Notes: a model not told the origin generated them from the letters alone. A stretch of 64,000 nucleotides of DNA from an uncultured bacterium (GCA_964399495.1 CAYNQX010000017.1:11591-75590); one strand, 5' to 3'. Numbered from the stretch's first letter, positions 13,026 through 58,746 are shown. A program made the numbers and translations.

Positions 13026-13105
13026 AACCCTCGGGTCACCTCCGACCGATGAGGCGCAAAGCATACAGCCATTGCGCCCGGCCCGCAAGGCGCATTCCTT
13101 GAGGC

Positions 13106-14446: not shown

Positions 14447-14593
14447 GAGGCTTTTCGATATCGCGGACAAGAAAAGCCAGTTCTAGTCTTTTACATCATC
14501 AATGCTCATCGTACATTGTAGGGGCTCGGTCGATAGTACGGCTGAGCCCCTCATTCGTCGTGACTTCCGCATTCTCAAGCCCGGGGGTGCAGC

Positions 14594-34338: not shown

Positions 34339-34404
34339 TTCCCGACTGGCCCCGCCCCCTCGAATTCCCTACCATGTCCCCTGCCCGAGCTTGGAGGTGA
34401 GGAC

Positions 34405-35796
<1,392 letters not shown>

Positions 35797-39116: not shown

Positions 39117-39134
39117 TCGCTCGGCCAATGAACG

Positions 39135-40385: not shown

Positions 40386-40477
40386 GTTTCGTCGGCGGCG
40401 AACGTCGCGGACGAACGAGAGGCAGTGTTTGGTTTGGTTCGTTGTTAGTTAGCGGAATCCACAAGGAGGTCACGACA

Positions 40478-40912: not shown

Positions 40913-40982
40913 AGTCTCGCGGCACGGGACGGGAGCCGGCATGACGCCGGCTCCCTCTCCGGCCACCGAGAAAGGCGATTCG

Positions 40983-41899: not shown

Positions 41900-41900
41900 C

Positions 41901-43235
41901 ATGGGAACCCGACTTCGCTTCGCATCGCGCATCACCCGCTGGCCGCGGGAGGGCTACGCCCTGCTCACCGCCATGATCTTCGCGCTCGTCATCACCCTGG
42001 CCGGGTTGGCCTTCTTCAGCATCGCCACCTACGAGACGCGCAGCTCGATCAACGCCCATCGCTCGCAGCAGGCCTTCCATATCGCCGACGGCGCCATCGA
42101 ACGCGCCAGGGCCATGCTGCTCGATGACATCACCTGGCAGGCCGGCTGGACCGCCGAAGCCCTGGGCCAGGGAGAGTTCGATCTCACCGTCACGCCGACC
42201 ACCCACCTCGGCCAGCCCGCCCTGAACATGGTGGCCGAAGGCCGGATCGCGAACGCCGCGCGCAGCATCGAGGCGGTGGTGCGCGCCACGCCGAGCGCAT
42301 TCGGCCTGAACGTCCTGGTGGCTGGAGACGCCGACGTGAACGGAAACCTCTGCCTCACCGGCGCGGTGCACGTGGGCGGCGACGGCGATTTCGGCCCCGG
42401 CGACGTCCACCTGGCCTGCGGCGAATACACGGAGGGGTTCGAGGTGTCCCCGCCCCCGGTCCGCACGGAAGCGGGTCAGTACCCCGACGCCACCTACTAC
42501 GAGGTCCGGGGCACGAAGATCGGCAACCAGTATCAGGCCCGCATCTTCGACGGCAACGGCGTCGACATCACCTCCGCCCTGGGCGACAGCCTCGTGGGCG
42601 TGACCTCCTATCACAACGGCTCGAAGAGCTTCACCTTCGACTTCGGCAACAACGCCACCATCCGGAACTACTTCGACGAATCCACCGGCATCTTCCGGCG
42701 GGCGCCCGGCGACCTGGGCGTGGTCGTCAACTTCGGCAGCCCGCCGGTGACGGATCCGCCCGGCATCCTGGGCGTGAGCAACGTCATCCTGGACGGCAAC
42801 GCATCGACCACGGTCACCAGCACCCTCATCAACACACGCTTCACCGGCATCACGGCGGAGCAGCGCCTCGATGCTGCCTTCTGGCAGGGCGGACTGACGA
42901 CGGTGAAGCAGATCACCTTCGAGCCGAGCATGGGCATCGCGCTCATCACCAAGGAGTTCATGAAGTCCGGCGGCTCGCAGGTGGATATCGGCACCTCGGA
43001 CTATCCCGCCCTCGTCTACACCACGGGAGACGTGGTCTCCCTGAACTCGAACTTCGAGCTCTCCGGCAGCCTGATCTGCCTGGGAGACTGGAACAGCTCC
43101 GGGGGTCCGAATCTGTTCTTCGACCCGAGTTTCCAGGCCAACCTGCCCGGCTACCTCGCGTCCTCCTGGAACGCGGGCGTGTCGGGCACCATGCACATTC
43201 TCTCCTGGCGCGAGATCGCCAGCGCGGGGAACTGA
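41901..43235 (+). CDS. PilX-like pilus assembly protein (PilX_N domain)
   Basis: EGYALLTAMIFALVITLAGLAFFSIATYETRSS is typical of the PilX N-terminus. Confidence 0.6.
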   Translation: MGTRLRFASRITRWPREGYALLTAMIFALVITLAGLAFFSIATYETRSSINAHRSQQAFHIADGAIERARAMLLDDITWQAGWTAEALGQGEFDLTVTPTTHLGQPALNMVAEGRIANAARSIEAVVRATPSAFGLNVLVAGDADVNGNLCLTGAVHVGGDGDFGPGDVHLACGEYTEGFEVSPPPVRTEAGQYPDATYYEVRGTKIGNQYQARIFDGNGVDITSALGDSLVGVTSYHNGSKSFTFDFGNNATIRNYFDESTGIFRRAPGDLGVVVNFGSPPVTDPPGILGVSNVILDGNASTTVTSTLINTRFTGITAEQRLDAAFWQGGLTTVKQITFEPSMGIALITKEFMKSGGSQVDIGTSDYPALVYTTGDVVSLNSNFELSGSLICLGDWNSSGGPNLFFDPSFQANLPGYLASSWNAGVSGTMHILSWREIASAGN

Positions 43236-43247
43236 CGGGAGGAACCG

Positions 43248-44201
43248 TTGCGCGGTTCACGAAACATCAGGACGGGCATCGACATCGGGTCGCACAGCGT
43301 CAAGCTGGTGCGCGGCCTCGGCGACCGCGGCCTCGAATCCCTCACCCACCACGGCATCGAGACCTGGGAGGGCGGACGCGACGTCGATCGCGCCGCCGCC
43401 GCGCTCGCATCGCTCATGGAGCGCCTGGAGCTCGACCGACGCAAGCTCGGCCGCCTGGCCACGGCCGTCGACGGCTGGGACGGCAGCTGCCGGGAGGTAG
43501 TGACTCAGGCTCTCGAGGACGAGGAGTTCGCGCGCGCGCTTCCCTACGAGGCCAGGCGGCACCTGAATCTCGAGGGCATGGAGCACCCGGTGATCGCGGG
43601 CCAGGTTCTGGGCCCCGTGGTCGGCGGTCAGGCCGAGGAGGGCAATCGCAACCGCGTGCTGTTGGCCGCCGTGCCGAGGGCCCGCAGGGAGTACGCGCTC
43701 TCGGTGCTCGAACGGATCGGGCTCGAGCCCGAGCTGGTCGATCTCGAGCCGCTGGCGGGACTCAACGCGCTCTTCGCCTCGGGCATCGAGGACGATGGGG
43801 GCAAGGAGGCCATCGGCCTCCTCGATCTCGGCGCGGGGGCCGTCGGCTTCGCCGTGGGTTGCCGCAGCGGCGGCCTGATGAGCCGGGTCGTGGGTTCCGG
43901 TCTCGGGGGGCTGTCGGAGCCCGAGCGTCAGACCTTCATCGCGGCGCTCGTGGATCGCGTCGCGGAGACGATCACCTACTTCCGGGGCCGCTTTCACCGC
44001 AAGGTGCGGTCCGTCGTCCTGTCCGGCAACGGAGCCGGGCTGACCGAGCTCGTGGACAACCTGTCGACCGCGCTGGACTGCGGGGTGCAGGTCGCCGATC
44101 CGCTCGCGCCCTTCGGGTTCGTCCCCGACACCGAGGGCGAGGGCGCGCTCTACGTCACCGCCTGCGGTCTGTGTCAGCGGGGAGGCGCCGCGAATGTATG
44201 A
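43248..44201 (+). CDS. pilM: Type IV pilus assembly protein PilM (actin-like ATPase fold)
   Basis: GIDIGSHSVKLV ... GLLDLGAG ... VVLSGNGAGL; TTG start. Confidence 0.8.
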   Translation: MRGSRNIRTGIDIGSHSVKLVRGLGDRGLESLTHHGIETWEGGRDVDRAAAALASLMERLELDRRKLGRLATAVDGWDGSCREVVTQALEDEEFARALPYEARRHLNLEGMEHPVIAGQVLGPVVGGQAEEGNRNRVLLAAVPRARREYALSVLERIGLEPELVDLEPLAGLNALFASGIEDDGGKEAIGLLDLGAGAVGFAVGCRSGGLMSRVVGSGLGGLSEPERQTFIAALVDRVAETITYFRGRFHRKVRSVVLSGNGAGLTELVDNLSTALDCGVQVADPLAPFGFVPDTEGEGALYVTACGLCQRGGAANV

Positions 44202-44751
44202 GATCAACCTCTACCCCGAGTACGAGCGCAAGCTGAGGGAGTCCCGCCACCAGCGGATCCATGGGGCGATCTTCGGCGCGAGCTTCGGCGTCTCGGCGCT
44301 GATTCTCCTCGTTCTGTTCCTGAGCTCCCACCTGCTTCGCGAGCGCGTGGAGATTCTGCGCGAGTCTACCGCCAGGATGGCCGCGCTCGTCGAGGGCAGC
44401 GCGCAGAACGAGCCCGAACTGCCCGCGGCCAAGGAGCTCCTGAGGCTCCGCCAGCGGAGGATCGACTGGTCGCCCAAGCTTGCGGCACTGGCCGAGGTCA
44501 CGGATCCCACCATCACGCTGACCCGCGTGGACGGGCGACTGCCGGCCAAGGGAATCTCCGCCTCCCTCGAACTGATGGGCGAGCTGGGACCCAGGGCCAC
44601 GCATCTCGAACAGGTCTCCGCGTTCATGAACTCATTGGCCAGCGACCAGCGCGTCTCGCTGCAGTTGCCCGCCGTCGAACTCGGCAACCTCAAGGGTTCA
44701 GAGGACGGACGGTTCATGGTCACCTGCGCCCCCGGCGAAGGGGGTTCCTGA
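44194..44751 (+). CDS. pilN: PilN
   Basis: EINLYPEY followed by a TM segment (PilN N-terminal signature). Confidence 0.7.
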   Translation: MYEINLYPEYERKLRESRHQRIHGAIFGASFGVSALILLVLFLSSHLLRERVEILRESTARMAALVEGSAQNEPELPAAKELLRLRQRRIDWSPKLAALAEVTDPTITLTRVDGRLPAKGISASLELMGELGPRATHLEQVSAFMNSLASDQRVSLQLPAVELGNLKGSEDGRFMVTCAPGEGGS

Positions 44752-45281
44752 TGAATCCGCTCGGCAAGGACAGGCTGCTCTTCGCGGGAACGGGCCTGCT
44801 GCTGCTTCTGGGTCTCGTCGTCGATCTGGCCCTGAACCAGCCGGCGGTCAAGGAGATCCGCCGACTGGAGGCCTATCAGGGGCAACTCATGGGCCAGATG
44901 GCCCAACTCGGCGACCAGCACCATTCGAATCGTGACCTGGCGAAAGCGCTCAAGATCAGCACCCTCGCCGACCTCTCCTCGGAGGGCATGAACGAGGACC
45001 CGGTAGCCTACATCGGCCGATTGCTGGAGCGGTCCGGACTCGAGCGCCTGGAGCTGACGGCCCGGGGCGTCGCCGAAACCGATGTCCTGCGCCTTCATCG
45101 ATTCACGCTGCGAACCCTCGGCGGGTACTCGGCCGTGCAGGGATTCGTGCGCGACCTGGAACTCGGAGAACGACTGGCGACGGTGGACGCGTTCAGCATC
45201 GAAGGCACGGACCGCAGGGAGCGGCTGGAAGGCCGATTCAACCTGACCCTCTACAGCATGATCTCGAAGGGGACGCCATGA
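44751..45281 (+). CDS. pilO: PilO
   Basis: N-terminal TM segment and coiled coil, at the conserved position between pilN and pilP. Confidence 0.6.
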   Translation: MNPLGKDRLLFAGTGLLLLLGLVVDLALNQPAVKEIRRLEAYQGQLMGQMAQLGDQHHSNRDLAKALKISTLADLSSEGMNEDPVAYIGRLLERSGLERLELTARGVAETDVLRLHRFTLRTLGGYSAVQGFVRDLELGERLATVDAFSIEGTDRRERLEGRFNLTLYSMISKGTP

Positions 45282-45775
45282 AGCAGAAGACGCACGGCGA
45301 CCGCTTCTTCTGGCTGGGCTGCGGTCTGGTGGGAATCGTCCTGCTGATCCTCGTGTTCCGCTGCGAGCGCGCCGTCACATCGGTGGTCAGCACGCACTCC
45401 GCCGCGGAGCAGCAGGCGCTTGCGCCCGCCTCCAGCGGAGGAACGATCTACGCCATGGTGGCGATGAAGGACAGCCTCATCGCCAGCGCGGGATCCGTGG
45501 AGAGGGATCCCTTCCTGGTGGTCGAGGCGCCGAAACCGAAGCCGGCGCCACGCAAGGCCAGACCGGCCAAGAAACGTCGACTTCCCGCACCTCCGCGGTT
45601 AACGGCGATCCTGTTCGAGGAAGCCGATCCCATGGTGAAGATCACCGTGGGCTCCACCGTCTCGGGCTGGCTGAGAAACGGAGAAGTCTACAAGGGCTGG
45701 ACGATCGTGAAGATCGAGGAGACGACCGTCGAGGTCCACGACAAACACCGCACTGTGAACCTCAGTGCACGTTAG
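45278..45775 (+). CDS. pilP: PilP-like lipoprotein
   Basis: N-terminal membrane anchor, proline/lysine-rich linker, C-terminal beta domain; assigned mainly by position. Confidence 0.5.
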   Translation: MKQKTHGDRFFWLGCGLVGIVLLILVFRCERAVTSVVSTHSAAEQQALAPASSGGTIYAMVAMKDSLIASAGSVERDPFLVVEAPKPKPAPRKARPAKKRRLPAPPRLTAILFEEADPMVKITVGSTVSGWLRNGEVYKGWTIVKIEETTVEVHDKHRTVNLSAR

Positions 45776-45786
45776 GAGGGCAAGAA

Positions 45787-47097
45787 ATGAAATCTCTGCG
45801 CGATAGGGGACGTCATGCCGCCACCACGGCGCTGGCGATCGGTTTGACCCTGGCGGTGCTGCCGCTGTGGGTCTCGGCGTCGGACGCGACCGAACCCGGA
45901 CTGATCTCCCTGCACGCCAACAATACCCAGGTGAGCGAGATCCTGGAGATCCTGGCCGACCGCAGCGGGCTGAATATCGTGGCCGGTCCGGCGATCCAGA
46001 ATCAGATGATCTCGATCCGGCTCCAGGACACTCCCTTCGAGGAGGCGTTGAACCTGGTGGTGAGGACCATGGGCCTCGGTTACGAGCGGGTGGGCAACTC
46101 GATTCTCGTTACCGACATCCAGTCGCTCGCCGTCAAGACCGGTTTGATCGTCCGCATCTTCGACCTGCAATTCGCCTCCGCGACGAAGGTCGCCGAGATC
46201 CTCGAGATCCTCAGCCGCGACGTCTCCGCGGAAGCCAAGGGCAACCACGTCATCTTCCGCGGCCCCCAGGCGGCGATCCAGCAGGCCGAGGTCATCGTGG
46301 CGCAGCTCGACCGGAAACCCGGCCAGGTGATTCTCGAGGCGCGCCTGATCGAGGTGAACACCACGGCGCTGCTCGAAGCCGGTATCGACTGGGAGTCGAT
46401 CACCGACTGGAGCACCATCATCACCGAGGGCGACCACGGAGCCTCTCCGAAGGGCACCTTCCCCACGGAGATCGCCTACGGCCCCGTCGATGACGGAGTG
46501 CAGCTTCACCGGCAGCTCACGGCTTTCGAACTGGCCGTCGAGGCCCTGATCGCCGACGGCAACGCGCGCCTGCTCTCCAACACGAAGGTCGTGACCCTCG
46601 ACGGTGAACCGGCCGAGATCTTCGCGGGCGACACCGTGCCCGTGGTCATCTCCTCCGTGCAGTCGCCGCAGTCGGCCGGCGCGTCGTTCCAGACCGTCCA
46701 GGTCGAGAAGATCGACGTGGGCGTGCGCCTCGCGATCACGCCGCGCATCAGCGACGACGGCACGGTCACGATGCTCGTCGAGCCCGAGGTCTCCCGCATC
46801 GTCGGCTACGTCGGCCAGTACGAGGATCTGCCCCAGACCTCCACCCGTCGGGCGCGCACCCTGCTGCGCACCGGAGACGGCGAGAAGATCTACATGGGCG
46901 GGCTGATCATCGACGAGGAGCGGGAGACCATCCGAAAGGTGCCCCTGCTCGGCGACATTCCCGTTCTGGGCCACCTGTTCCGTCACGTGAAGCGCGACGT
47001 GAATCGCTTCGACCTGGTCATCGAGATCACCCCGAAGATCGTCGGCGACATGGGCAGCCTGCTGCCCGTGGCTCCCGATATCCTCGGTGGAGAATGA
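45787..47097 (+). CDS. pilQ: PilQ secretin (short form lacking AMIN domains)
   Basis: Secretin domain (VVTLDGEPAEIFAGDTVPV...GGLIIDEE...VPLLGDIPVLGHLF) with a signal peptide. Confidence 0.8.
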   Translation: MKSLRDRGRHAATTALAIGLTLAVLPLWVSASDATEPGLISLHANNTQVSEILEILADRSGLNIVAGPAIQNQMISIRLQDTPFEEALNLVVRTMGLGYERVGNSILVTDIQSLAVKTGLIVRIFDLQFASATKVAEILEILSRDVSAEAKGNHVIFRGPQAAIQQAEVIVAQLDRKPGQVILEARLIEVNTTALLEAGIDWESITDWSTIITEGDHGASPKGTFPTEIAYGPVDDGVQLHRQLTAFELAVEALIADGNARLLSNTKVVTLDGEPAEIFAGDTVPVVISSVQSPQSAGASFQTVQVEKIDVGVRLAITPRISDDGTVTMLVEPEVSRIVGYVGQYEDLPQTSTRRARTLLRTGDGEKIYMGGLIIDEERETIRKVPLLGDIPVLGHLFRHVKRDVNRFDLVIEITPKIVGDMGSLLPVAPDILGGE

Positions 47098-47146
47098 GCC
47101 GACCCGGACGATCGCGTCCGGCCCGGCCAAGGAAGGAAGCACAGGC

Positions 47147-48214
47147 ATGAAGATCGACGACATTCTACGTGAAAGCGTGCGCCAGGACGCCTCGGACATC
47201 ATCATCTCCGCGGGCGCGCCGGTCACCTATCACGTGCACGGCGCGCTGGTGCAGTACGAGCCGGGGAACATCCTCTCGCCGGAGATGAGCCGGGATCTGG
47301 TGTACAGCCTGCTCGACGAGAAGCAGAGACGCCAGTTCGAGGAAGACCTCGAACTCGACATGTCCTACGAGATGGAGCACGTGGCGCGATTCCGCCTGGC
47401 GGTGTACCACCAGCGAGGCACCATCGCGGCGGTGCTGCGGGTGATTCCCATCCAGATCCCCCACTACACCGACGTCGGGCTCAGCACCAACCTGATGAGC
47501 CGGCTGGCGCATATCCCCAACGGACTCGTCCTGGTGACGGGCCCCACGGGCGCCGGCAAGTCCACGACCATCGCGAGCTGGCTCCAGTACCTGAACACCG
47601 AAGGCGAGCGGGCGAAGCACATCATCACCATCGAGGACCCGGTCGAGTACGACTTCGACTCGGAGGTCTGCGTCATCGACCAGCGGGAGCTGGGCACCGA
47701 CACGAAGAGCTACGTCGCGGGGTTGAGGAGCGCCCTCCGCCAGATGCCCCACATCATCTTCGTCGGCGAGATGCGCGACCGCGAGACGATGGAGGTGGCC
47801 CCGACGGCCGCCGAGACGGGCAACCTCGTCATCAGCACGCTCTCGACCCAGTCGTCGGCGAAGACGATCAATCGCATCATCGACGTCTTCCCCCTGAACG
47901 ACCAGGCGGAGATACGCACACGGCTCGCCCTCAGCCTCCGCTGCGTCATCTCCCAGGTGCTGCTCGGCCGACAGGACGAGCCCGGCCGCGTCGCGGCGCG
48001 GGAACTCCTGTTCGTGACGAACTCGGTGGCCAATCTCATCCGTGAGGGAAAGATCCATCAGATCAACAACGTCATTTCCAGCAGCGCGAAGGACGGAATG
48101 GTTCTCCTGGACGACTCGATGATCGAGCTCCAGCGCCTGGGCTTCGTGGCCCGGGCGGACATCCTCCCTCGCTTCCAGGACGCGGACAAGGCCCGCACCC
48201 TGCTGGAGGTTTGA
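47147..48214 (+). CDS. pilT: Twitching-motility retraction ATPase PilT
   Basis: Walker A GPTGAGKST and the PilT-specific AIRNLIRE-like motif VANLIREGKIHQI. Start at MKIDDIL with a GGAAGGA RBS. Confidence 0.9.
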   Translation: MKIDDILRESVRQDASDIIISAGAPVTYHVHGALVQYEPGNILSPEMSRDLVYSLLDEKQRRQFEEDLELDMSYEMEHVARFRLAVYHQRGTIAAVLRVIPIQIPHYTDVGLSTNLMSRLAHIPNGLVLVTGPTGAGKSTTIASWLQYLNTEGERAKHIITIEDPVEYDFDSEVCVIDQRELGTDTKSYVAGLRSALRQMPHIIFVGEMRDRETMEVAPTAAETGNLVISTLSTQSSAKTINRIIDVFPLNDQAEIRTRLALSLRCVISQVLLGRQDEPGRVAARELLFVTNSVANLIREGKIHQINNVISSSAKDGMVLLDDSMIELQRLGFVARADILPRFQDADKARTLLEV

Positions 48215-49043: not shown

Positions 49044-49190
49044 TCAGCCCGTCTTCTTCTCGGGCAGCGGCCGCACGCTGTTGCTGTGACAGCCCGGGCA
49101 GCTCCGCTCCACCGGTTTCCGGCTGTCGTAGGAACCGGCGTACTCGTGCCCGCAGCGCAGGCAGCGGAAGGTCACCGTCTTCTCAGCCAA
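49044..49190 (-). CDS. Small zinc-ribbon protein (C-x2-C ... C-x2-C), possibly translationally coupled to hdrA
   Basis: ...TFRCLRCGHEY...SCPGCHS... with a TTG or GTG start overlapping the hdrA stop; about 45 aa. Confidence 0.3.
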   Translation of the reverse strand: MAEKTVTFRCLRCGHEYAGSYDSRKPVERSCPGCHSNSVRPLPEKKTG

Positions 49191-51681
49191 GGGGCACCTC
49201 CCTCCTGCTTGACTCGGCCCGGTCCGCGAGCATCTTCGCGCGCTGTTTCTCGCGGCGCTCGTTGATACGCTGGAACTCGGTCGCCACGATCTCCCGCGTC
49301 TCATCGGTCTCCTCGCGCCGGACCGACTTCAGCATCGTCTCGAGCTCCTTCATCACCTTGGCGAACTTGGCGCCCTGGGCGGCGCTGATCCATTCGAGCT
49401 GCAGGCGCTCGGGGCGGATGCCCAGCTTCTCGAGGCGGTTCCACAGCTTCTCGACGCGCTTCTGGGTCCACTGCACCGCGTTGATGTAGTGGCAATCGGC
49501 GAAGTGGCAGCCGCTCACCAGCACCATGCCCGCCCCCTTGCCGAAGGCCTCGAGGACGAAGTCCTCGTCCACGCGGCCGCTGCACATGGTGCGGATGAGC
49601 CGCGAGTGGGCCGGGTACTGGCTGCGGTTCGTGCCGGCCAGGTCGGCGCCCGGATAGGAGCACCAGTTGCAGGCGAAGGTGACCACCTTCTCCCAGGGCT
49701 TCTCCTCGCAGATGGCGTCGATCTGGGCCATGATCTGCTCGTCGGTGTAGTGGCGCATGGCCACCATGTCCGTCGGGCACTCCGCCGCGCAGGTGCCGCA
49801 GCCGGAGCAGGCCGCCTCGATCACCTCGGGGAACCTGCCGGCCTTGCGGTCCGGATCGGTGATGGCGCCGTAGGGGCAGACCTTGCTGCAGATGCCGCAC
49901 TGGGTGCAGAACTCGGTGTCGATGATCGACGTGATCGCCTCGATCTGCACCATGCCCGCGTTCAGCAGGATGCTGGCGCGGCTGGCCGCGGCTCCGGCCT
50001 GGGTGACCGAGTCCTTCACGTCCTTGGGGAACTCGTTGCAGCCGGCGAAGAAAACGCCCCGCGTGGGCGCGTCCACCGGTTTGAGCTTCGGATGGCTCTC
50101 CATGTAGAAGCCGTCGGAGGTGTTGCTCAGGTTGAGCAGCTTCTTCACGATGCCGCCGTCCCGCCGCGGAATCATGCCGCAGGCCAGCACCACCATGTCG
50201 AGTTCGTACTTGCCGAGCGCGTTGGTGGCCGTGTTCTCCACGTCGAGCCACAGGTTCCCCGTGTTCGGATCCTCCCTCACCTCGCCGGGCAGGCCGCGCA
50301 CGTAGCGCACACCCTCCTCCTTGCTGCGGCGGTAGAGGTCCTCGAAGCCCTTGCCGAAGGCGCGCATATCCATGTAGAACACCGTGCTCTCGACATCGGG
50401 GTAGTGGTCGGCGAGCAGCAGCGTGCTCTTGACCGTGTTCATGCAGCAGATGTTGCTGCAGTAGGGGTTGCCCTTCTCACTGAGGGAACGGGAGCCGACG
50501 CACTGGATGAAGCCGATGCGCAGCGGCCGCTCCATGTCGCCCGGCCGCACGAAGTGACCCTCGGTGGGTCCGCCGGCGCAGATGAGCCGCTCGAACTCCA
50601 TGCTCGTGATCACGTTGGGAAAACGCGTGTAGCCGTACTCGTCGTACTCGGTGGGGTCGTACACCTCCGCCCCCGTCGCCACGACCACCGCCCCCACCTC
50701 CACGTTCACGAACTCGTCCTTGGCGTCGTAGTCGATGCAGCGTTTCTCGCACACCTCCTTGCACTTGCCGCAGGCGATCGGGTTGTTGCCGAGGCAGGCG
50801 TCCATGTCGATGAGGAAGCTCGACGGCACCGCCTGCGGGAAGGGCATGTAGATCGCCTTGCGGCTGGAGAAGCCCTGCTGGTAGGCGTCGGGCACCGCGA
50901 CCGGGCACACCTCGGCGCAATCCCCGCAGGCGTTGCAGGCGGTCTCGTCGACGTACTTCGCCCGCCTGCGCACGGTCACGTGGAAGTTGCCCACGAAACC
51001 CGTGACGTTCTCGACCTCGCTATTCGTGAAGAGCTGAATCCGGGGATGTCGACCGACATCCATCATTTTGGGTCCCAGGATTCATATAGAGCAGTCCATC
51101 GTCGGGTAGGTCTTGTCCAGTGCGGCCATGACCCCGCCGATGCTCGCCTCCTTCTCCACGAGATAGACCTGATGGCCCGCGTCGGCCAGATCCAGCGCGG
51201 ACTGGATGCCGGCCACTCCACCGCCGATCACCAGCGCCGCCTTCGTCACCGGCACGCGGGTCTCGGTCTGGGGCTCCAGAAGACGAACGCGGGCGACGCC
51301 CGAGGCCACCAGATCCTTGGCCTTCTGCGTGGCGTCCTCCTTCTGGTCCTGATGCACCCAGCTCACGTGCTCCCGGATGTTCACCATCTCCAGGAGGTAG
51401 GGATTGAGCCCCGCTTCGGAGAGACAGTTCCGGAAGGTGGGCTCGTGGATCTTGGGCGTGCACGACGCCACCACGACGCGGTTGAGCTTGTACTCCTCGA
51501 TCGCGGACTGGATCTCCATCTGACCCGGATCCGCGCAGGTGTACTTGCTCTGCTTCACCACCACCACGTCGGGCAGGGTGGCGGCGAACTCGCTCACCGC
51601 TCCGCAGTCCACCGTGCCGGCGATGTTCTTTCCGCATTCGCAGACGAACACGCCGACGCTGAGATCTCGCATCTTCACCAC
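49183..51681 (-). CDS. hdrA: Heterodisulfide reductase subunit A-MvhD fusion; putative selenoprotein (in-frame TGA at 51082-51084)
   Basis: The N-terminal fragment (51082-51681) has the FAD motif [21 protein letters not shown] and stops as ...TYPTMDCSI[TGA]ILGPKMMDV. The downstream fragment (49183-51066) continues in the same frame. The TGA sits where HdrA homologues have DCSxCILxPK. The C-terminus carries ferredoxin clusters and an MvhD domain ([13 protein letters not shown]...). Confidence 0.8.
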
Positions 51682-52847
51682 GGGTTCTCACCTCCATCCA
51701 TGGCCTCGGCCGCAACCGTCGCAAGGTCGCGGACCTTGAGGCCTTTCAGTTCATCGTCCGCGTCGCCCTCCTGGGCGCAGCGGAAATGGAGCTGGCACTT
51801 GGGGCAGGCGGTGACGAGGGTCTCGGCCCCCCGCTCCACCGCCTCCTTGAGTCTTGTCTCCTGCAAATGTCGGCTCACCGCGTCGCAGTGCAGCCAGCCG
51901 TTGGTTCCGCAGCAGGGCGCCTCCTCGCCGTGCCGCTCGAACTCGCGAAAATCGTCACCGTAGATCCTGTTCAGCACGGCGCGCGCCGCGTCGCCGGCTC
52001 GGAGCTGGCGGCTCAGGCGGCAGGAGTCGTGGAAGCTCACCGTTTCCGCCAGAGGTCTCAGGCTCAGCTCACCGGTCTCGAGTTTGCCCGCCAGGTACTC
52101 GCTGAGGTGCATGACCTCGACGTCCAGCGAGACGCCGAGCGTGGGGTAGACGTCGCGGAGCATGTGCGCGCACTCGGGGCAGGAGGCCACGAGACGGGTC
52201 GCGCCCGTGGCGGCGATCGACTCGGCGTTGCGGCGGGCCAGCTCGGCGGCGGTGGCCTCGTCGCCGCTCCAGTAGAGGTCGTGTCCGCAGCAGCGTTCGC
52301 GGGACATCAACGCCGGCGTCTCGCCGAGGCCGGACAGCAGACGCAGGCTGCTTCTCGCGATCGCGCTGCTGTCGGACTCGAGGTGCGTGAAGTAGGCGTC
52401 GAAGAAAGGCAAGCAGCCGCTGAAGTAGACGAGATCCCCCGTCTCGGCCGCGGGCGCGCCCTTCGGCACCCAGTCGAGCCGACGCTGACCCTTGCCGTCC
52501 CGCGCCATCAGCCGGTGCAGGCTCTCGAGGGCGCCGCCGTGAGAGCAGGGAAAGGGAGTACCGGCGCCCGCAAACTCCTCGCCGCGGCTAAGGCGAGCGA
52601 AGCCGTTGTAGTCCACGTCCGAGGGGCAACGACGCGTGCAGAGCCCGCAGGTCAGACACTGTGCGAGTCGATGGGGAGCCTTCTCCGCCGCCTCGCCGCG
52701 GTCCGCCTGTCCGCTCACCCGGGTGTAGACCAGCAGGCGCGGCGAGAAGTTCTCGTCGTGAAGGGCCACGGGACAGACCGCGGTGCACTTGCCGCAATCG
52801 AGGCAGTAGTAGGCGCGGCTTTCGCGGATACTCGGCGCGAGGCTCAC
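51675..52847 (-). CDS. HdrD/HdrCB-like subunit (2x[4Fe-4S] ferredoxin plus two CCG domains)
   Basis: [25 protein letters not shown], then CCG motifs (...CCGHD..., ...CPKCQ...). Confidence 0.75.
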
Positions 52848-55261
52848 GAGGACACCTCCTGCTCTGCCGGAGCGGGATCGAGGTCGAGGCGTCCCCGACC
52901 GCGCACGCCTTCGATGAAGTCGCCGAGGATCTCGGGCAGCACGTGGATCTCGCCGCGGTGGAAGAGCCTCATGTCGAATCGCTCGGAGTCAACACCCAGC
53001 AGGCCGAGGATCCCCTGGAGCCTGGCGACGTGTCCGAGGAAGGTCTGGTTGCCCGTGCGATAGTGGCACTCCCCCTCGGCGCAGCCGGTGACGAAGACCC
53101 CGTCGGCCCCCGCCTCGAAGGCCGAGAGGATGAAGGCCGGGTGGATCCGACCGGTGCAGAGCGTGTCCATGATTCGCAGGGAGGGCGGCATCTCGTCCAG
53201 ACGAGACGCGGCCAGCGGGAAGCACCAGTTGCAGGAGAGCAGGAGAATGCGCGAGGCGCCCAGGGGCGGATCGGGTGCGAGCAGCGCGGAGATCTCGTCG
53301 ATCATGCCCTGGTGACCGTAGTGGTCCGCGATCATGGCGCCGGTCGGGCAGACCGACGCGCAGCTGCCGCAGCTCTTGCAGAACTCGGGGAACACCCTCG
53401 CCGCCGAACCTCCACCGGTGCCCTCCATGATCCGGATGGCGTCGTAGGGACAGGCGGTCACGCAATCCCCGCAGGCGCGGCAGAGCCGTTCGTCCACCTT
53501 GCACAGCAGGGGCGAGAGCTCCCACTCGCTGCGGTGATCGCCGCCGGCGGCCAGGCCCTGCCCCGGCCAGGTGAGGCTCACCGGACGCGGCTCGAGGGCC
53601 AGGGGGAACTCCTCGGGGTCGTTGGGCACGCGCACCAGCGTAGGTCCCATGGGATGGCCGTTCGTCTCGCCGGCGGGACGCAGGAGCGCGATGCGGTGGC
53701 GGCACTCGTCGGCGCAGCTGCCGCACTCCTGGCAGGGCCCGCAGCGGAGGCAGCGCAGGGCCTCCTCCCTGGCCGCATCCTCGTGGTAGCCGAGCTCCAC
53801 CTCCCGGAACCCTTTGCGCTCCTCGACCGGCAGCACCTGCTGCTGCCTGCGCAGTCGTTTCCGGGGCGAGCGGGGCAGGATGCCCAGTTCCATCGGTCGC
53901 GGCGGCGAGGGCCCCAGCAGAGGACGCCCACGCAGGTAGGCATGAATCGACTCCGCGGCGCGATGGCCCTGAGCGATGGCGCCGATGACGGTGTCGGGGC
54001 CGAGCACGAGGTCGCCGGCGGCGAACACCCCCTCCACGCCGGTGGCCAGCGTGTCCTCGTCGGCCACCAGGGTTCCCCACTTGCTGCGCTCGAAACCGTC
54101 GCCCTTGGGCAGCAGCGAGAAGTCCGCCTCCTGGCTGATGGCGGTGACGATGAGGTCGGCCTTCAGGTCGAAGAACTCGCCTCGGATCGGCACGGGGCGC
54201 GGCCGCCCGCTCTCGTCGGCGGCCACCAGCTTCATGGCCTGGCAGCGCAGGCCCTTGACGCGACCGCCCTTGCCCAGGACCTCCGTGGGCGCGGCGAGGA
54301 AGCGGAACTTCACGCCCTCGCGCTCGGCGTCCTGCACCTCGTCGATGACAGCCGGCATCTCCGAGCGCGTGCGGCGGTAGACCACCGTCACTTTGAGCCC
54401 GAGACGCTTGCCCGTGCGGGCCGCGTCCATGGCGCTCATGCCGCCGCCCACCACGAGCAGGCTCTTGCCCGAAGGCAGGGGCAGCTTGCGCTCGATCATC
54501 CGGAGAAACTGCACGCAGTCGAAGACACCCAGATTCTCCCGCTCGCCGTCCACGCCCAGGCGCTTGCCGAGCTGGGCGCCCACCGCCAGAAGCACGGCGC
54601 CGAAGCCCTCGTCGTGGAGGTCGTCCAGGCTCAGATCGCGACCGAAGGTGACGCCCGTGCGGAACTCGACGCCGAGCTGCGCGATGTGGTTCACCTCTTT
54701 GTGAATCACCCTGCGCGGCAGACGGAACGACGGGATACACTGGTTGAGCATGCCGCCCGGCTCGTCGGCCATCTCGAACAGGGTGACGCCGTAGCCCTCG
54801 CGCACGAGGTCGAAGGCCGCCGCCAGGCCCGCGGGACCGCCGCCCACCACCGCCACGCGCTCTTCGTGGTGGCGAGGCGCCGGGCGCGGAGGCACGCTGG
54901 GGTGTTCGTCCTCCCAGTCGGAGACGAAGCGCTTGAGCAGGCGGATCGCCACGGCCTCGTCCTGTTCGGAGCGCTGGCAGGCCAGCTCGCAGGGGTGGGT
55001 GCAGACCCGGCCGCAGATGCCGGGCAGAGGGCAGCGCTCCCGCACCAGATCCACCGCCTCCTGCATGCGGCCCTGGGCGATGAGTCCGATGTAGCCCTTC
55101 ACGTCCACGCCGGCGGGGCAGGCCGCGTGGCAGGGCGAGTCGGCGAGACGGTGCAGCGAGTAGTTGTGGCCGCCGCCGGGGAACTCGAGCTTCACCGCGC
55201 CGGCGTCCAGGGCATCCCCGAACCCTCCTCGCGACATCGATGTTCCCGCTCCGCCGTACAC
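52844..55261 (-). CDS. HdrL-like large flavoprotein: GltD-type NAD(P)H oxidoreductase fused to a 2x[4Fe-4S] ferredoxin and an MvhD domain
   Basis: 805 aa. Two Rossmann motifs (VVGGGPAGL, VVGGGMSAMD), then CLRCGPCQECGSC / CRACGDCVTACP, and a C-terminal MvhD (LLLSCNWCFPLAASRL...GCAEGECHY). Confidence 0.75.
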   Translation of the reverse strand: MYGGAGTSMSRGGFGDALDAGAVKLEFPGGGHNYSLHRLADSPCHAACPAGVDVKGYIGLIAQGRMQEAVDLVRERCPLPGICGRVCTHPCELACQRSEQDEAVAIRLLKRFVSDWEDEHPSVPPRPAPRHHEERVAVVGGGPAGLAAAFDLVREGYGVTLFEMADEPGGMLNQCIPSFRLPRRVIHKEVNHIAQLGVEFRTGVTFGRDLSLDDLHDEGFGAVLLAVGAQLGKRLGVDGERENLGVFDCVQFLRMIERKLPLPSGKSLLVVGGGMSAMDAARTGKRLGLKVTVVYRRTRSEMPAVIDEVQDAEREGVKFRFLAAPTEVLGKGGRVKGLRCQAMKLVAADESGRPRPVPIRGEFFDLKADLIVTAISQEADFSLLPKGDGFERSKWGTLVADEDTLATGVEGVFAAGDLVLGPDTVIGAIAQGHRAAESIHAYLRGRPLLGPSPPRPMELGILPRSPRKRLRRQQQVLPVEERKGFREVELGYHEDAAREEALRCLRCGPCQECGSCADECRHRIALLRPAGETNGHPMGPTLVRVPNDPEEFPLALEPRPVSLTWPGQGLAAGGDHRSEWELSPLLCKVDERLCRACGDCVTACPYDAIRIMEGTGGGSAARVFPEFCKSCGSCASVCPTGAMIADHYGHQGMIDEISALLAPDPPLGASRILLLSCNWCFPLAASRLDEMPPSLRIMDTLCTGRIHPAFILSAFEAGADGVFVTGCAEGECHYRTGNQTFLGHVARLQGILGLLGVDSERFDMRLFHRGEIHVLPEILGDFIEGVRGRGRLDLDPAPAEQEVSS

Positions 55262-55285
55262 TGCGCACCTCCCCGGCGCTCGTGG

Positions 55286-55840
55286 TCAGACCACGGCCGT
55301 CATCTGGGCCCGGCCGTGGGCCAGGCCGGCCTCGAAGGCCTTCAGGTTGAGTTCCTCGGTGCCCGACGGCACCGACGCCGCCACCGCCTTCCTGGCCGCC
55401 TCCTCGTCGACGATCCCGGTGACGGCCGTGAAGAAGCCCACCATCACGATGTTCTGGATCAACTTGCGGCCCAGCTCTTCGGCCATCCGCGTGGAGGGAA
55501 TGCGGAACACGTGAACGCCGGCCGGCGGGTCGTCGACCTGCACGAGCTCCTCCTCGATGAGCAGCAGACCGCCCTCCTTCAGCTCGGGGCTGAACTTGCT
55601 GTACGCCTCCTGGCTCATGCAGATGAGCACGTTCGGCGCGCTGACGTAGGGGTAGAGGATCGGATCCGTGTTCACGACGAGCTGCGCGCTGCAGGCGCTG
55701 CCCCGCGCCTCGGGCCCGAAGCTCTGCGTGAGCGTGGCGTGACCCTCGTCGAAGATGGACGCGGCCTTGCCGATGATGATGCCCATCAGGATCACGCCCT
55801 GGCCGCCGAAGCCGCCGATCTTAACTTCGCTGGTCTGCAC
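55286..55840 (-). CDS. 2-oxoacid:ferredoxin oxidoreductase gamma subunit
   Basis: 184 aa; IGGFGGQGVILMG...; GTG start overlapping the beta-subunit gene. Confidence 0.85.
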   Translation of the reverse strand: MQTSEVKIGGFGGQGVILMGIIIGKAASIFDEGHATLTQSFGPEARGSACSAQLVVNTDPILYPYVSAPNVLICMSQEAYSKFSPELKEGGLLLIEEELVQVDDPPAGVHVFRIPSTRMAEELGRKLIQNIVMVGFFTAVTGIVDEEAARKAVAASVPSGTEELNLKAFEAGLAHGRAQMTAVV

Positions 55841-56720
55841 AGCAGCAACCTCCGTACTCCTCGTACGCGTCGCCGAACCGCGACCGGTACTGGTCGTTCA
55901 TCCGCTCCAGGAAAGTGGGACGGCTCTTCTCCACGAACTCGCCGCAGATGATCTTCTGCTGGTAGTCGATGTCCACGTCCCGCGTGTTCGCCCCGTGCTT
56001 GATCTCCGTGGAGTCCTGGTAGAATTTCAGCAGGCTGCGTCCGTCGCCGAGCTTGTTCCGGCGTCCGTAGAGCGTGGCGCAGGGAGCGATGACCTCGAGA
56101 AAGGTGAAGCCGGGCAGCGTCAGGGCCTTCACCATCGAGTCGATGAGGCGCCGGAAGTGCAGCACCGTCCAGCGCGCCACGTACACCGCCCCGCAGGACT
56201 CGGCGAGGAAGGGCAGGTTGAAGGGCGCGTCGTAGCTGCCGAAGGGCGCCGTGGAGGCGATGGCCGTCGTGGGCGTGGTCGGCCCCTGCTGGCCGCCGGT
56301 CATCGCATAGGTGAAGTTGTTCACGCAGATGCAGACGAGATCCTGGTTGCGCCTCGCGGCATGGATGAAGTGGTTGCCGCCGATCGCCGTGAGATCGCCG
56401 TCGCCGCTGAACACCACCACCTTGAGCTCCGGCCGCGACAGCTTGAGCCCCGTGGCGAAGGGGATCGGACGGCCGTGGGTGGTGTGGTAGGAATCCAGGT
56501 TCATGTAACCCGCCACGCGCCCCGTGCAGCCGATTCCCGACACGATGGATACCATGTCGGGATCGAGCCCCGCCTTCTCGACGGCCGCCGCGAAACAGTT
56601 CACCGCGGTGCCGATGCCGCAGGAGGGGCACCAGATGTGCGGCATCCGGTCCATGCGCAGCATGGATTCCATGGGATGCTCGGGACTCGCCTCGATTTCG
56701 CTCAGGATGTCTGTCGACAC
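55821..56720 (-). CDS. 2-oxoacid:ferredoxin oxidoreductase beta subunit (TPP-binding)
   Basis: WCPSCGIG ... GDGD..AIGGNH (TPP motif). GTG start with GGAGG. The track ORF is over-extended into the alpha-subunit gene. Confidence 0.85.
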   Translation of the reverse strand: MSTDILSEIEASPEHPMESMLRMDRMPHIWCPSCGIGTAVNCFAAAVEKAGLDPDMVSIVSGIGCTGRVAGYMNLDSYHTTHGRPIPFATGLKLSRPELKVVVFSGDGDLTAIGGNHFIHAARRNQDLVCICVNNFTYAMTGGQQGPTTPTTAIASTAPFGSYDAPFNLPFLAESCGAVYVARWTVLHFRRLIDSMVKALTLPGFTFLEVIAPCATLYGRRNKLGDGRSLLKFYQDSTEIKHGANTRDVDIDYQQKIICGEFVEKSRPTFLERMNDQYRSRFGDAYEEYGGCCCADQRS

Positions 56721-57874
56721 GCGTTCGCCTCCCTGATTTGCTCGAGGATCTGCTCCGGCTCGTGCACGGTGCCGCCGCCGTGACCGGCGAGGAAGGTCTT
56801 CGCCCGCCCGGCGGCGCAGCGCTCCACCTCGTAGAAGATCTGTCCGTAGTTGAGTTCGGCGACGACGAAGGCGTCGACCCGTTCGGCGAGCTCGGCGATG
56901 CGGCGTTCGGGGAAGGGCCACAGGGTGACGAGCCGCAGGGTCCCCACGCGGATCCCCTCCTCCTTCGCGAGCTGCACGGCCCTCTCGGTGACGCGGCTCG
57001 TGATGCCGTAGGACAGCACCACGACGTCGGCGTCCTCGACCTCCCGCTCCTCGATCCGGATGATCTCCTCGGCGCTCAGGCGGATCTTGTCCACCAGGCG
57101 CCGCACCAGTTTCTCCTGGGCCTCGGGCGTCACCACCGGGTAGCCGCGCTCGTCGTGGGTGAGGCCGGTCACGTGCATGCGGTGGCCGTCGCCGGCCTTG
57201 CCCATGGGCGGCACCATGTCCGCGTCCGCCGCAAAGGGCAGGTAGTCCTTGCCCTTCTTGTCCGTCCAGCGGCGGGGCTCCACCGTGAGCGTTTCCGCCT
57301 CGGGAATCACGACCTTCTCGGTCATGTGGCCGACGCACTCGTCCATCATGAACATCACCGGCACGCGATAGCGCTCCGACAGATTGAAGGCGTCGATCAT
57401 CAGGTCGAAGCACTCCTGAGGCGAGCTGGGCGAGATCGCGATGATCTCGTAGTCGCCGTGGCTGCCCCAGCGCGCCTGCATGACGTCGGCCTGGCCCGTG
57501 AGCGTGGGCAGGCCGGTCGACGGCCCGCCGCGCTGCACGTTGACGAACACGCAGGGCGTCTCGGTCATCACCGCCAGGCCGATGTGCTCCATCATCAGGG
57601 AGAAGCCGGGGCCGCTGGTGACGGTCATCGCCTTCGCCCCGCCCCACACCGCGCCCTGGATGGCGATGGAGCTGGCGAGCTCGTCCTCCATCTGGATGAA
57701 CATCGCGCCCACCTCGGGGGCGCGGGCGCTGTAGCGTTCCACGACCTCGGTGGAGGGCGTGATGGGATAGCCGGCCACGAAGCGGCAGCCCGCGGCCAGC
57801 GCGCCCTCGCAGGCGGCGTGGTCGCCGTCGAGGAAGTGGATGCCGGTGAGCACGCCCTTGGGGTCCGCCTTCAT
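56702..57874 (-). CDS. 2-oxoacid:ferredoxin oxidoreductase alpha subunit
   Basis: About 390 aa from MKADPKG (GGAGG RBS); GYPITPSTEV and TSGPGFSLM motifs. Confidence 0.85.
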   Translation of the reverse strand: MKADPKGVLTGIHFLDGDHAACEGALAAGCRFVAGYPITPSTEVVERYSARAPEVGAMFIQMEDELASSIAIQGAVWGGAKAMTVTSGPGFSLMMEHIGLAVMTETPCVFVNVQRGGPSTGLPTLTGQADVMQARWGSHGDYEIIAISPSSPQECFDLMIDAFNLSERYRVPVMFMMDECVGHMTEKVVIPEAETLTVEPRRWTDKKGKDYLPFAADADMVPPMGKAGDGHRMHVTGLTHDERGYPVVTPEAQEKLVRRLVDKIRLSAEEIIRIEEREVEDADVVVLSYGITSRVTERAVQLAKEEGIRVGTLRLVTLWPFPERRIAELAERVDAFVVAELNYGQIFYEVERCAAGRAKTFLAGHGGGTVHEPEQILEQIREANACRQTS

Positions 57875-58155
57875 CGCGCCACCTCCTCGGCCGCCGCGTC
57901 GGGGGCGGGATCGCAGAAGATCGCGAACTCCGGGCAGATCATCTCGCAGAGATCGCAGTTGACGCAGAGTTCGGCCTGTTTGGTGAAGGGCGGGTGATAG
58001 CCCTTGGCGTTGAACTCCTCGGAGAGCTCGAGGACGTCTCGCGGGCAGTAGTCGACGCAGAAGCCGCAGCCCTTGCATCGCTCGCGGATGATCGTGACCT
58101 CGCCTCGCGGCAGGTTCAGCTTGTCGCTGTCGAAGGGCTCTCGCCAGAGTTTCAT
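57871..58155 (-). CDS. 2-oxoacid:ferredoxin oxidoreductase delta subunit (2x[4Fe-4S] ferredoxin)
   Basis: 94 aa from MKLWREP: CKGCGFCVDYCP and CVNCDLCEMICP; GGAGG RBS. Confidence 0.8.
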   Translation of the reverse strand: MKLWREPFDSDKLNLPRGEVTIIRERCKGCGFCVDYCPRDVLELSEEFNAKGYHPPFTKQAELCVNCDLCEMICPEFAIFCDPAPDAAAEEVAR

Positions 58156-58181: not shown

Positions 58182-58208
58182 TGAAAAAACCCCGGGGTGG
58201 CCCGGGGT
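58182..58208 (-). terminator. Rho-independent terminator/attenuator 35 nt upstream of the korD start
   Basis: Minus strand: CCCCGGGCCACCCCGGGG followed by TTTTTTC. It directly abuts the TGA of a 34-codon ORF. Confidence 0.6.
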
Positions 58209-58312
58209 CAGAACACGTCTGCCTTGGTTTCGGTCTTCTCCTCGACCACACCGACACGACCCGAATAGGCCGATCGATAGCCGGGACAGGCAAGGAGCAG
58301 CAGTCGTTTCAT
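58208..58312 (-). CDS. Small ORF (34 aa, MKRLLLLACPGYRSAYSGRVGVVEEKTETKADVF); candidate leader peptide or small lipoprotein
   Basis: ATG with a weak RBS; the stop codon is fused to the terminator hairpin. Confidence 0.3.
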   Translation of the reverse strand: MKRLLLLACPGYRSAYSGRVGVVEEKTETKADVF

Positions 58313-58431: not shown

Positions 58432-58465
58432 AAACGTAAAACCCTCCCCGGGAGACGGGGAGGGC
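58432..58465 (-). terminator. Rho-independent terminator
   Basis: Minus strand: CCCTCCCCG-TCTCC-CGGGGAGGG followed by TTTTACGTTT. Confidence 0.6.
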
Positions 58466-58549
58466 GAATAGGGTCGGCATCGGTGACGTTGGGTTTCCCC
58501 CGGCGGGGTGATCCCAAGTCAGCGTCAGACGACGCTTGGGAGATATCCC

Positions 58550-58594
58550 CTATGGGGACGTCACCTCCACCAAGCCAAATCTGTCTGAACTCAC
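58550..58594 (-). CDS. 14-codon ORF with a perfect extended Shine-Dalgarno (AGGAGGTGATCA)
   Basis: GGAGAGGAGGTGATCAA-GTG AGT TCA GAC AGA TTT GGC TTG GTG GAG GTG ACG TCC CCA TAG. Could be a leader peptide or regulatory ORF. Confidence 0.25.
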   Translation of the reverse strand: MSSDRFGLVEVTSP

Positions 58595-58746
58595 TTGATC
58601 ACCTCCTCTCCGGGCGTACCGACGATTGGTGAGACCCAACTCACCCGGCCTCTTATCCGCCCGAGCCTTCGAGGCCGCCGCACTGGCGTGCGAACGAAGT
58701 CCCGAGAATGATGAGTGATTCCTCGGAAGCTGTACAGCGAAAAAGA

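Follow-up and report, generated by a model that had tools for sequence, protein, structure and literature searches.

The DNA analyzed here is a window of 64,000 nucleotides from an uncultured bacterium (GCA_964399495.1, CAYNQX010000017.1:11591-75590), with a GC content of approximately 0.63–0.73. On its minus strand, positions 49044–58155 hold eight genes that join a four-subunit 2-oxoacid:ferredoxin oxidoreductase (OFOR), here named Kor, to a flavin and iron–sulfur module of the heterodisulfide reductase (Hdr) type. In a sequence-only reading, these genes had been proposed to encode a single complex in which electron bifurcation or confurcation links the oxidation or synthesis of 2-oxoacids to NAD(P)H and a disulfide or quinone-like acceptor. 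The linkage was found to recur in several bacterial phyla; therefore, it probably marks an uncharacterized enzyme complex.

In the direction of transcription, the first gene is korD (57871–58155), which encodes a delta subunit of 94 amino acids with Pfam Fer4/Fer4_7 matches, two [4Fe-4S] motifs, and an N-terminal KLWREPFD extension. The alpha subunit gene korA (56702–57874; 390 amino acids) follows, with Pfam POR_N and PFOR_II domains and an intact YPITP motif. The beta subunit gene korB (55821–56720; 299 amino acids) matches Pfam TPP_enzyme_C and carries the thiamine pyrophosphate (TPP)-binding GDG...NN motif and Cys ligands, and the gamma subunit gene korG (55286–55840; 184 amino acids) matches Pfam POR. 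The next gene (52844–55261) encodes an 805-amino acid fusion of an NfnB/GltD-like part, a ferredoxin part, and MvhD (Pfam Fer4_20, Pyr_redox_2, Fer4_7, and FlpD). It is followed by a gene for a soluble HdrD-like protein of 390 amino acids (51675–52847; two CCG domains and Fer4_8/17) and by hdrA-mvhD (49183–51681; NF040770 HdrA2), whose product has 832 amino acids, including one selenocysteine. The last gene (49044–49190) encodes a zinc ribbon of 48 amino acids with a CxxC...CxxC pattern and weak Pfam Zn_ribbon_8/DUF4379 matches; its TTG start overlaps the stop of hdrA. Hidden Markov model searches with Pfam and NCBIfam agreed with the earlier description for every product.

The sequence-only reading had all eight minus-strand genes chained by overlaps of 4–20 nt. 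All eight genes were found in place, and publicly deposited gene calls for the contig of origin (SAMN10231912, a metagenome scaffold) have matching boundaries, but only six of the seven junctions overlap. The overlaps are 4 nt between korD and korA (ATGA), 19 nt between korA and korB, 20 nt between korB and korG, 4 nt between the flavoprotein gene and hdrD (GTGA), 7 nt between hdrD and hdrA, and 8 nt between hdrA and the zinc-ribbon gene. At the remaining junction, korG lies 24 nt from the flavoprotein gene, with the ribosome-binding site GGGGAGG in between; this distance becomes 48 nt when the ATG start of the public gene caller is used. A consensus scan for internal promoters gave a single weak promoter-like site, and no convincing terminator was seen inside the operon in a sequence scan of the region. 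The eight genes are thus described here as one predicted operon. This structure, the selenocysteine-containing HdrA, the CCG domains, and the NAD(P)H-binding flavoprotein of the earlier account were all verified from the sequence.

The family type of the oxidoreductase is clear; the four subunits are predicted to form an enzyme of the KorDABG/OorDABC type. KorA scored 558 bits against NF006412 (2-oxoacid:acceptor oxidoreductase alpha; cutoff 411), its PDB relatives, enzymes acting on 2-keto acids and 2-oxoglutarate, are 1yd7, 8ys5 (2-oxoglutarate synthase alpha), and 6n2n, and its translation contains GYPITPSTE, the role of the YPITP motif having been described (PMC5020499). The best NCBIfam model for KorB was the 2-oxoglutarate ferredoxin oxidoreductase beta subunit (228 bits; cutoff 364), as was the protein of its best PDB match, 8ys5_C. 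KorG scored 208 bits against NF006323 (cutoff 235), and KorD scored 71 bits against OGOR_delta, its best NCBIfam model (cutoff 125). For all four subunits, the best or next-best specific models were of the 2-oxoglutarate (Kor/Oor) type and not Por, Vor, or Ior; in NCBIfam, the 2-oxoglutarate-specific equivalog cutoffs were not reached by the beta, gamma, and delta subunits. The substrate is therefore likely 2-oxoglutarate, a call made solely from which family models score best. Separation of pyruvate from 2-oxoglutarate by active-site residues was abandoned since the published residues are those of Sulfolobus enzymes only and provide no transferable rule. Pad-subunit models of NCBIfam also gave weak matches to KorA, KorB, and KorG.

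KorA belongs to a very large and highly conserved family, and the catalytic subunits of Kor appear ordinary. Five close homologues of KorA (73–75% identity) were retrieved with their gene context; four belong to stand-alone korDABG operons (L175–L178) and one is Hdr-linked (L174). The idea that Kor forms a specialized clade was rejected accordingly. The delta subunit behaved differently. The N-terminal motif W[RK]xPxD, within a fuller arm consensus of (K/R)xW(R/K)xP(L/F)D at the start of the linked proteins, was present in 19 of 19 distinct Hdr-linked KorD sequences scanned and also in L174, whereas it was absent from all four stand-alone KorD sequences. The lengths differed as well, being 89–118 amino acids for linked and 78–82 amino acids for stand-alone KorD. 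In a neighbor-joining tree of KorA without bootstrap, the stand-alone sequences nest within the Hdr-linked ones, beside L174 and the window clade. Because the arm goes with the linkage while stand-alone KorA is nested in the linked clade, the KorD motif tracks Hdr linkage and not simple ancestry. The arm hints at an adaptation for docking and is the sole sequence-level sign of one that was found.

The 805-amino acid flavoprotein had been named HdrL. Its NAD(P)H-binding character was upheld, but the name was not. Its domains are, in order, Fer4_20 with Pyr_redox_2, a conserved Cys-rich stretch, a 2×[4Fe-4S] ferredoxin domain, and an MvhD/FlpD domain. The first ~480 residues are colinear with Thermotoga maritima NfnB (4ylf_B; 316 bits) and likewise with StnC-type proteins. 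The nucleotide-binding signature GGGxxAMDAAR...VYRR, in which VYRR is of the NADPH type, and the cluster-ligand pattern are kept, and invariant positions include Cys, Gly, and YRR residues. The HdrA2 model covers only residues 578–786, and no HdrA-like flavin domain was found with Pfam and NCBIfam; thus, the protein is not HdrL in the original sense and is better described as an NfnB-like part with a ferredoxin domain and MvhD. Pfam gave no NfnA-like gene within the operon. NfnB is the subunit that bears the bifurcating flavin adenine dinucleotide in Nfn, and since the NfnB-like subunit carries this flavin, the operon may have two candidate bifurcation sites. Two such sites have likewise been proposed for HdrA–NfnB fusions of anaerobic methanotrophic archaea. 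Elsewhere in the window, a canonical pair of NfnA-like (14564–15457; DHODB Fe-S domain) and NfnB-like (15450–16922; Fer4_20 and Pyr_redox_2) genes lies on the plus strand, and the organism has a separate Nfn-type transhydrogenase by this pair at 14564–16922. In protein P0074 (1023 amino acids), a homologue of the NfnB-like–MvhD protein, a CCG domain is added, so that the HdrD part is naturally fused to it; this supports a physical association of the NfnB-like–MvhD protein with HdrD.

The HdrD-like protein is an HdrC and HdrB fusion. It has eight Cys residues, enough to bind a pair of cubane clusters, and both of its CCG motifs are complete. Proteins of this kind are marked by two CX31-40CCX34-36CxxC motifs and an HdrC-like part with 2×[4Fe-4S]; both motifs were found here as C-X(35-40)-CC-X(34-35)-CxxC, beside the HdrC-like part, and the profile of the protein matches HdrC and HdrB of 5ODC and 8RVU. 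In L091, the last Cys of the first CCG motif is Gly; this position is not universal. The 832-amino acid product of the following gene scored 1160 bits against NF040770 HdrA2 (cutoff 1100). Against 5odc_A, it scored 771 bits in a colinear, gap-poor alignment over residues 6–657, with ~58% identity and every cluster Cys kept, and its C-terminus matches MvhD (5odc_D). By these matches, which span the N-terminal cluster domain, the TrxR-like FAD domain, and the inserted and C-terminal ferredoxin domains, the protein is a bona fide HdrA with a fused MvhD. Two genes elsewhere in the window may relate to lipoyl proteins, which serve as dithiol/disulfide carriers in sulfur-oxidizing Hdr-like systems. 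A lipoyl synthase-like radical SAM gene (8187–9266) and a gene for a dihydrolipoamide dehydrogenase-like flavoprotein (34339–35793) lie on the plus strand, outside the operon.

The reading frame of HdrA-MvhD contains an in-frame TGA at residue 200 (51082–51084) in the context DCSI-U-ILGPK, and this residue aligns with Cys197 of 5odc_A. A hairpin resembling a selenocysteine insertion sequence, GGAUGUC-GGUC-GACAUCC, is located at 51044–51061, 23–40 nt 3' of the UGA. The single-sequence fold of this region was not significant (z = -1.1); thus, the case for selenocysteine rests on conservation across loci. The TGA occurs at the identical codon in all eight loci examined, which come from different lineages, and the hairpin GGAUGYC-GGUC-GRCAUCC is kept in the eight loci with one stem pair varying from U-A through U.G to C-G. 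The TGA is read as selenocysteine, the predicted protein showing the features expected of a bacterial selenoprotein. Selenocysteine-containing HdrA itself was already known (PMC2702500). The small protein encoded after hdrA is also recurrent, with the motif F[KR]CLRCGHE...ER.CP.C.SNSVR conserved in over 20 loci, where its gene closes the cluster on the 3' side.

The sequence-only reading had proposed a search for the same gene order in other genomes, and such a search was successful. The order kor-flavoprotein-hdrD-hdrA was present in every context retrieved through flavoprotein homologues; all seven sampled homologues were Kor-linked, with flavoprotein identities of 39–69%. The order was found in loci from Krumholzibacteriota (L086, a metagenome-assembled genome [MAG]), Eisenbacteria (L092, a MAG), a contig whose protein is labelled Phycisphaerae by NCBI (L091), and Desulfobacterota (L083, Desulfatitalea sp. 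UBA4791 MAG), the taxon labels being those of the MAG depositors. It was also present in two unbinned contigs, L087 and L089, the latter with MvhD split off, and in a JGI contig (L093). The zinc ribbon was identified by gene call in L086, L091, L092, and L093 and by tblastn in L087 and L089, and none was found in L083, which has a true large HdrL as its flavoprotein. Because the same order recurs in distant lineages, the arrangement is not due to chance. The window and L086 share 83% identity in KorA and 84% in the HdrA core, and a relationship of the source organism to Krumholzibacteriota is probable.

In metagenome loci seeded with HdrD, Kor was found in 23 of the 80 retrieved and in 14 of the 24 with a complete 9-kb upstream flank; these counts, taken from pattern-seeded scans that were capped in size, do not represent unbiased frequencies. 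A scan of a genome collection with an HdrL alignment was less productive, since its degenerate patterns mostly matched generic GltD/NfnB genes and only one of 80 loci (L083) was informative. The Kor-linked architectures are alike except for the module that separates korG from mvhD-hdrD. This module is an NfnB-like fusion in the window type, an NfnB-like protein with an extra HdrA-like flavoprotein in the type with true HdrL (~1100 amino acids; L083, L122, L125, and L171), and a second HdrA-like flavoprotein of ~960 amino acids without the NfnB part in a third type. In L097, L107, and L112, the order is kor-mvhD-hdrD-hdrA/mvhD with no middle module. The core conserved in nearly all Kor-linked loci is Kor, MvhD, HdrD, and selenocysteine-containing HdrA-MvhD, with the zinc ribbon after it in most cases. 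These variants rule out the NAD(P)H flavoprotein as a core part; it is a variable module, swapped or missing among the Kor-linked loci. A core kept while the middle flavoprotein is swapped is the modular pattern known for Hdr complexes.

Two loci depart further from the common plan. In L174 (8730–15081; Deltaproteobacteria MAG CP070770), korDABG is followed by an NfnB-like gene (654 amino acids), mvhD, and hdrD, with no hdrA, which suggests that the flavin of the NfnB-like protein is sufficient for the Kor/HdrD pair. In L098, a Mrr-type restriction endonuclease gene (6924–7904) and a DUF4258 gene (10159–10455) are inserted within the cluster. By this example, the kor-hdr cluster appears to tolerate insertions between modules.

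Our preferred reading is that the operon encodes a modular Hdr-type system for flavin-based electron bifurcation (FBEB), with Kor as the low-potential arm, an NADPH hydride arm, and a disulfide as the high-potential arm. We give this reading a tentative probability of roughly 0.45. NADPH would donate a hydride to the NfnB-like flavoprotein, whose ferredoxin domain and MvhD [2Fe-2S] domain would relay the electrons to the flavin of HdrA, where the pair would be split. One electron would follow the downhill branch, reaching the double-CCG site of HdrD by way of the HdrC-like clusters and reducing a disulfide or other high-potential acceptor there. The second electron would take the uphill branch, leaving HdrA by its inserted ferredoxin domain for KorD and then the TPP site; HdrA is thought to release its low-potential electron through this inserted domain. 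The net reaction, which would be reversible, may be written as 2 NADPH + acyl-CoA + CO2 + RSSR <-> 2 NADP+ + 2-oxoacid + CoA + 2 RSH, the acyl-CoA probably being succinyl-CoA and the 2-oxoacid 2-oxoglutarate. Either direction could apply, namely, anabolic synthesis of 2-oxoglutarate or oxidation of 2-oxoacid and thiol to yield NADPH. We infer the physical contact, the electron path, its direction, the substrate identities, and the use of NADPH rather than NADH from the genes.

Several findings are consistent with this scheme. The cofactor sites in HdrA, HdrD, and the flavoprotein all appear intact. The potentials of the three couples are approximately -500 mV for 2-oxoacid/acyl-CoA + CO2, -320 mV for NADP+/NADPH, and approximately -150 to -290 mV for biological disulfides. 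Kor, NADPH, and disulfide thus fall in the low, middle, and high order that FBEB requires. The earlier proposal of a single bifurcating or confurcating complex fits this thermodynamic order and is partly supported; moreover, it was strengthened by the synteny across phyla and by the KorD motif specific to Hdr-linked clusters. A precedent for HdrA wired directly to a CO2-reducing enzyme may be seen in Hdr-Fdh-Fmd and Hdr-Fwd, which were among the PDB matches (7bkb, 9sw6). In a stronger form, the Hdr core would be hard-wired to Kor through the specialized KorD, giving a ferredoxin-independent, NADPH-driven 2-oxoacid (2-oxoglutarate) synthase in which CO2 fixation is paid for by disulfide reduction. 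This form is distinctly unlikely in our estimate.

However, a number of observations weigh against the bifurcating complex. KorA shares 73–75% identity with its counterparts in stand-alone KorDABG operons, which presumably use free ferredoxin, and only one of the five sampled close homologues is Hdr-linked, in a locus that itself lacks HdrA. The contrast in the KorD motif comprises four stand-alone examples and a tree without bootstrap. No gene for a thiol/disulfide carrier is present among the eight genes, and three of the clusters (L097, L107, and L112) have no NAD(P)H flavoprotein. HdrL/HdrA-MvhD-HdrD modules without Kor are widespread, the remaining HdrD loci being arrays of such units. 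In Syntrophobacter fumaroxidans, proteomes from the conditions that were studied did not show a comparable cluster (PMC5947623). The stand-alone KorA relatives and the modules without Kor would suit an explanation without a supercomplex, in which Kor is a normal ferredoxin-dependent enzyme, the NfnB-like, MvhD, HdrD, and HdrA parts form an autonomous soluble FBEB enzyme that acts on NADPH, ferredoxin, and a disulfide and is comparable to Flx-Hdr or Nfn, free ferredoxin runs between the two, and co-transcription only matches their expression. The shuffling of modules between loci, the small ferredoxin genes adjoining the cluster in L091 and L092, and the ferredoxin-based redox economy implied by the NfnAB pair of the window also favor it. 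We regard this explanation as somewhat unlikely, because different phyla share the fixed gene order, in which stop and start codons overlap, the OFOR partner is always of the Kor type, and the KorD motif follows the linkage and not the KorA phylogeny.

The position of the NfnB-like gene directly after korG raises a different reading, namely, a 2-oxoacid:NADP+ oxidoreductase whose NfnB-like subunit passes Kor electrons directly to NADP+, with HdrA and HdrD as a side branch or redox valve. NAD(P)-linked relatives of OFORs exist, such as the phenylglyoxylate:NAD+ oxidoreductase PadEFGHI and the 2-oxoglutarate:NADP+ oxidoreductase of Azoarcus; the weak Pad-subunit matches to three Kor subunits and the L174 cluster, with kor, NfnB-like, MvhD, and HdrD genes only, point the same way. 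Yet the invariant parts are HdrD and HdrA-MvhD, whereas the NfnB-like module varies and is missing in the three minimal clusters, and direct transfer would waste ~200 mV and need no CCG clusters, which makes this reading improbable. The minimal clusters, with a free-standing MvhD directly after korG, would fit with Kor as the electron input in place of Mvh hydrogenase or formate dehydrogenase. Electrons at approximately -500 mV would then enter the HdrA flavin through MvhD and be split there between a downhill acceptor, either a disulfide or NADP+, and a second acceptor with a potential below that of ferredoxin, by a logic like that of class II benzoyl-CoA reductase BamB-I, a complex that also joins HdrD-like, selenocysteine-containing HdrA/MvhD-like, and NAD(P)H modules. 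This arrangement is very unlikely as well, since no gene for a very-low-potential acceptor enzyme was present in any locus examined and OFORs reduce ferredoxin unaided. The modular FBEB system with Kor as its low-potential arm is regarded as the most economical of these readings.

The DNA upstream of the operon was also analyzed. A GC-rich leader hairpin followed by six T residues is located at 58182–58209 (minus strand), 27 nt upstream of the korD ATG. A hairpin and T-run 27–39 nt before the korD start are conserved only in the three closest lineages, namely, the window, L086 (~2750–2790), and L087 (~7060–7100), the latter two with compensatory stem changes. The hairpin may serve as a leader attenuator, or it may terminate the upstream unit; a role as general attenuator of the cluster was dropped because of its narrow conservation. 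A search of Rfam with the whole window, and with the leader under permissive settings, gave nothing relevant to the operon; thus, no known riboswitch was assigned to it. Elsewhere in the window, the search gave a cobalamin riboswitch (12860–13059, minus strand; 94 bits) ahead of a TonB-dependent receptor gene (10654–12846, minus strand). On the 5' side of the operon, ~590 nt of non-coding DNA are followed by an ArfB-like gene and a chemoreceptor gene. Directly 3' of the ArfB-like gene, a non-coding block of ~270 nt (58435–58703, minus strand) is ~88% identical to L087 (6475–6740) and has no counterpart in L086. A high degree of structure is predicted for it, with a GC hairpin and U-run (58441–58465) at its end, and Rfam gave no match; it is a candidate for an unclassified small RNA. 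Regulator genes lie directly upstream of the kor-hdr cluster in other loci, of the MarR family in L091 (5211–5855) and L093 (5365–5952) and of the Rrf2 family in L087 (5628–6059), and none of either family does so in the window. On the 3' side, the operon faces a convergent block of type IV pilus/type II secretion system genes on the plus strand that ends at 48967. Within it, positions 37782–48214 encode a GspE/PilB-like ATPase, a PilC-like protein, pilins, PilM, a secretin, and a PilT-like protein.

Reductive carboxylation by OFORs needs electrons near -500 mV, and the supply of such electrons in anaerobes without hydrogenase or photosystems is only partly understood. If Kor operates on an Hdr-type core, the few known flavin-based bifurcating systems would gain a new reaction, CO2-fixing TPP enzymes could be direct clients of HdrA, and a function would be provided for some of the many orphan bacterial HdrA/HdrD/MvhD clusters. 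If the hard-wired synthase were correct, it would be a new FBEB reaction class that is common among anaerobic bacteria of sediments, and bacteria would have an equivalent of the Hdr-Fmd supercomplex of methanogens. The sediment phyla with the cluster include several that are little studied; cultured relatives with the cluster are Syntrophobacter, by listing, and Desulfatitalea, in a MAG, which opens the hypothesis to direct biochemistry.

The sequence-only reading had not recognized the gene order as a described complex. No characterized complex was found, but the linkage had been listed once, as the proteome paper on S. fumaroxidans names 'HdrAL/POR (Sfum_0012-0018)' as a genome-predicted complex undetected in the proteome (PMC5947623). 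By that listing, it resembles the present operon in having an HdrA/HdrL-type gene set beside a 2-oxoacid:ferredoxin oxidoreductase, and it differs in being called POR, without biochemistry or comparative analysis. In the full-text literature outside subscription journals, no biochemical, structural, or comparative treatment of the linkage was found; mentions of 'KorA' in HdrA papers were rejected as they refer to Korarchaeota and not to the Kor alpha subunit. What is new here is Kor as a partner and the breadth of conservation, whereas every part belongs to a known family and the system follows the logic of Hdr complexes already described.

Among these complexes, MvhAGD-HdrABC and HdrA2B2C2 of methanogens (5ODC, 8RVU) share a colinear HdrA with all cluster ligands, an MvhD fused as in HdrA2, and HdrC- and HdrB-like parts with the present system. 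In contrast to them, HdrB and HdrC are fused here into one soluble HdrD, the electron input is an NfnB-like NADPH flavoprotein and not a hydrogenase or F420 site, and Kor stands in the same operon; the hosts, by their nearest named relatives, are non-methanogenic bacteria without coenzyme M and coenzyme B. Hdr-Fdh-Fmd and Hdr-Fwd (7BKB, 9SW6) are conceptual analogues, in which bifurcated electrons reach a CO2-reducing enzyme through poly- or di-cluster ferredoxin subunits and not through free ferredoxin. In the proposed complex, CO2 would be fixed by a TPP/[4Fe-4S] 2-oxoacid synthase in place of a tungsten or molybdenum formylmethanofuran dehydrogenase.

HdrL was defined in the genome paper of Desulfobacterium autotrophicum as an HdrA/GltD fusion (Strittmatter 2009; PMC2702500). 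The window protein resembles it in its GltD-like NAD(P)H module and in the association with MvhD and Hdr genes, but it lacks the defining HdrA-like flavin domain. It is also similar to NfnAB/StnABC (4YLF, 5JCA, 8OH5, 9BOV), since its N-terminal 480 residues run along NfnB/StnC with the same cluster Cys/Glu pattern; unlike those systems, the operon has no NfnA, and the C-terminus of the protein is an HdrA-type ferredoxin domain with MvhD. The class II benzoyl-CoA reductase BamBCDEFGHI contains an HdrD-like CCG protein, selenocysteine-containing HdrA/MvhD-like subunits, and an NAD(P)H module together with a low-potential catalytic module. No gene for BamB, a tungsten aldehyde oxidoreductase-type protein, was present in the window operon or the related loci examined. 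Compared with Bam, the NAD(P)H module here is NfnB-like and not NuoEF-like, and the place of the low-potential module would be taken by Kor.

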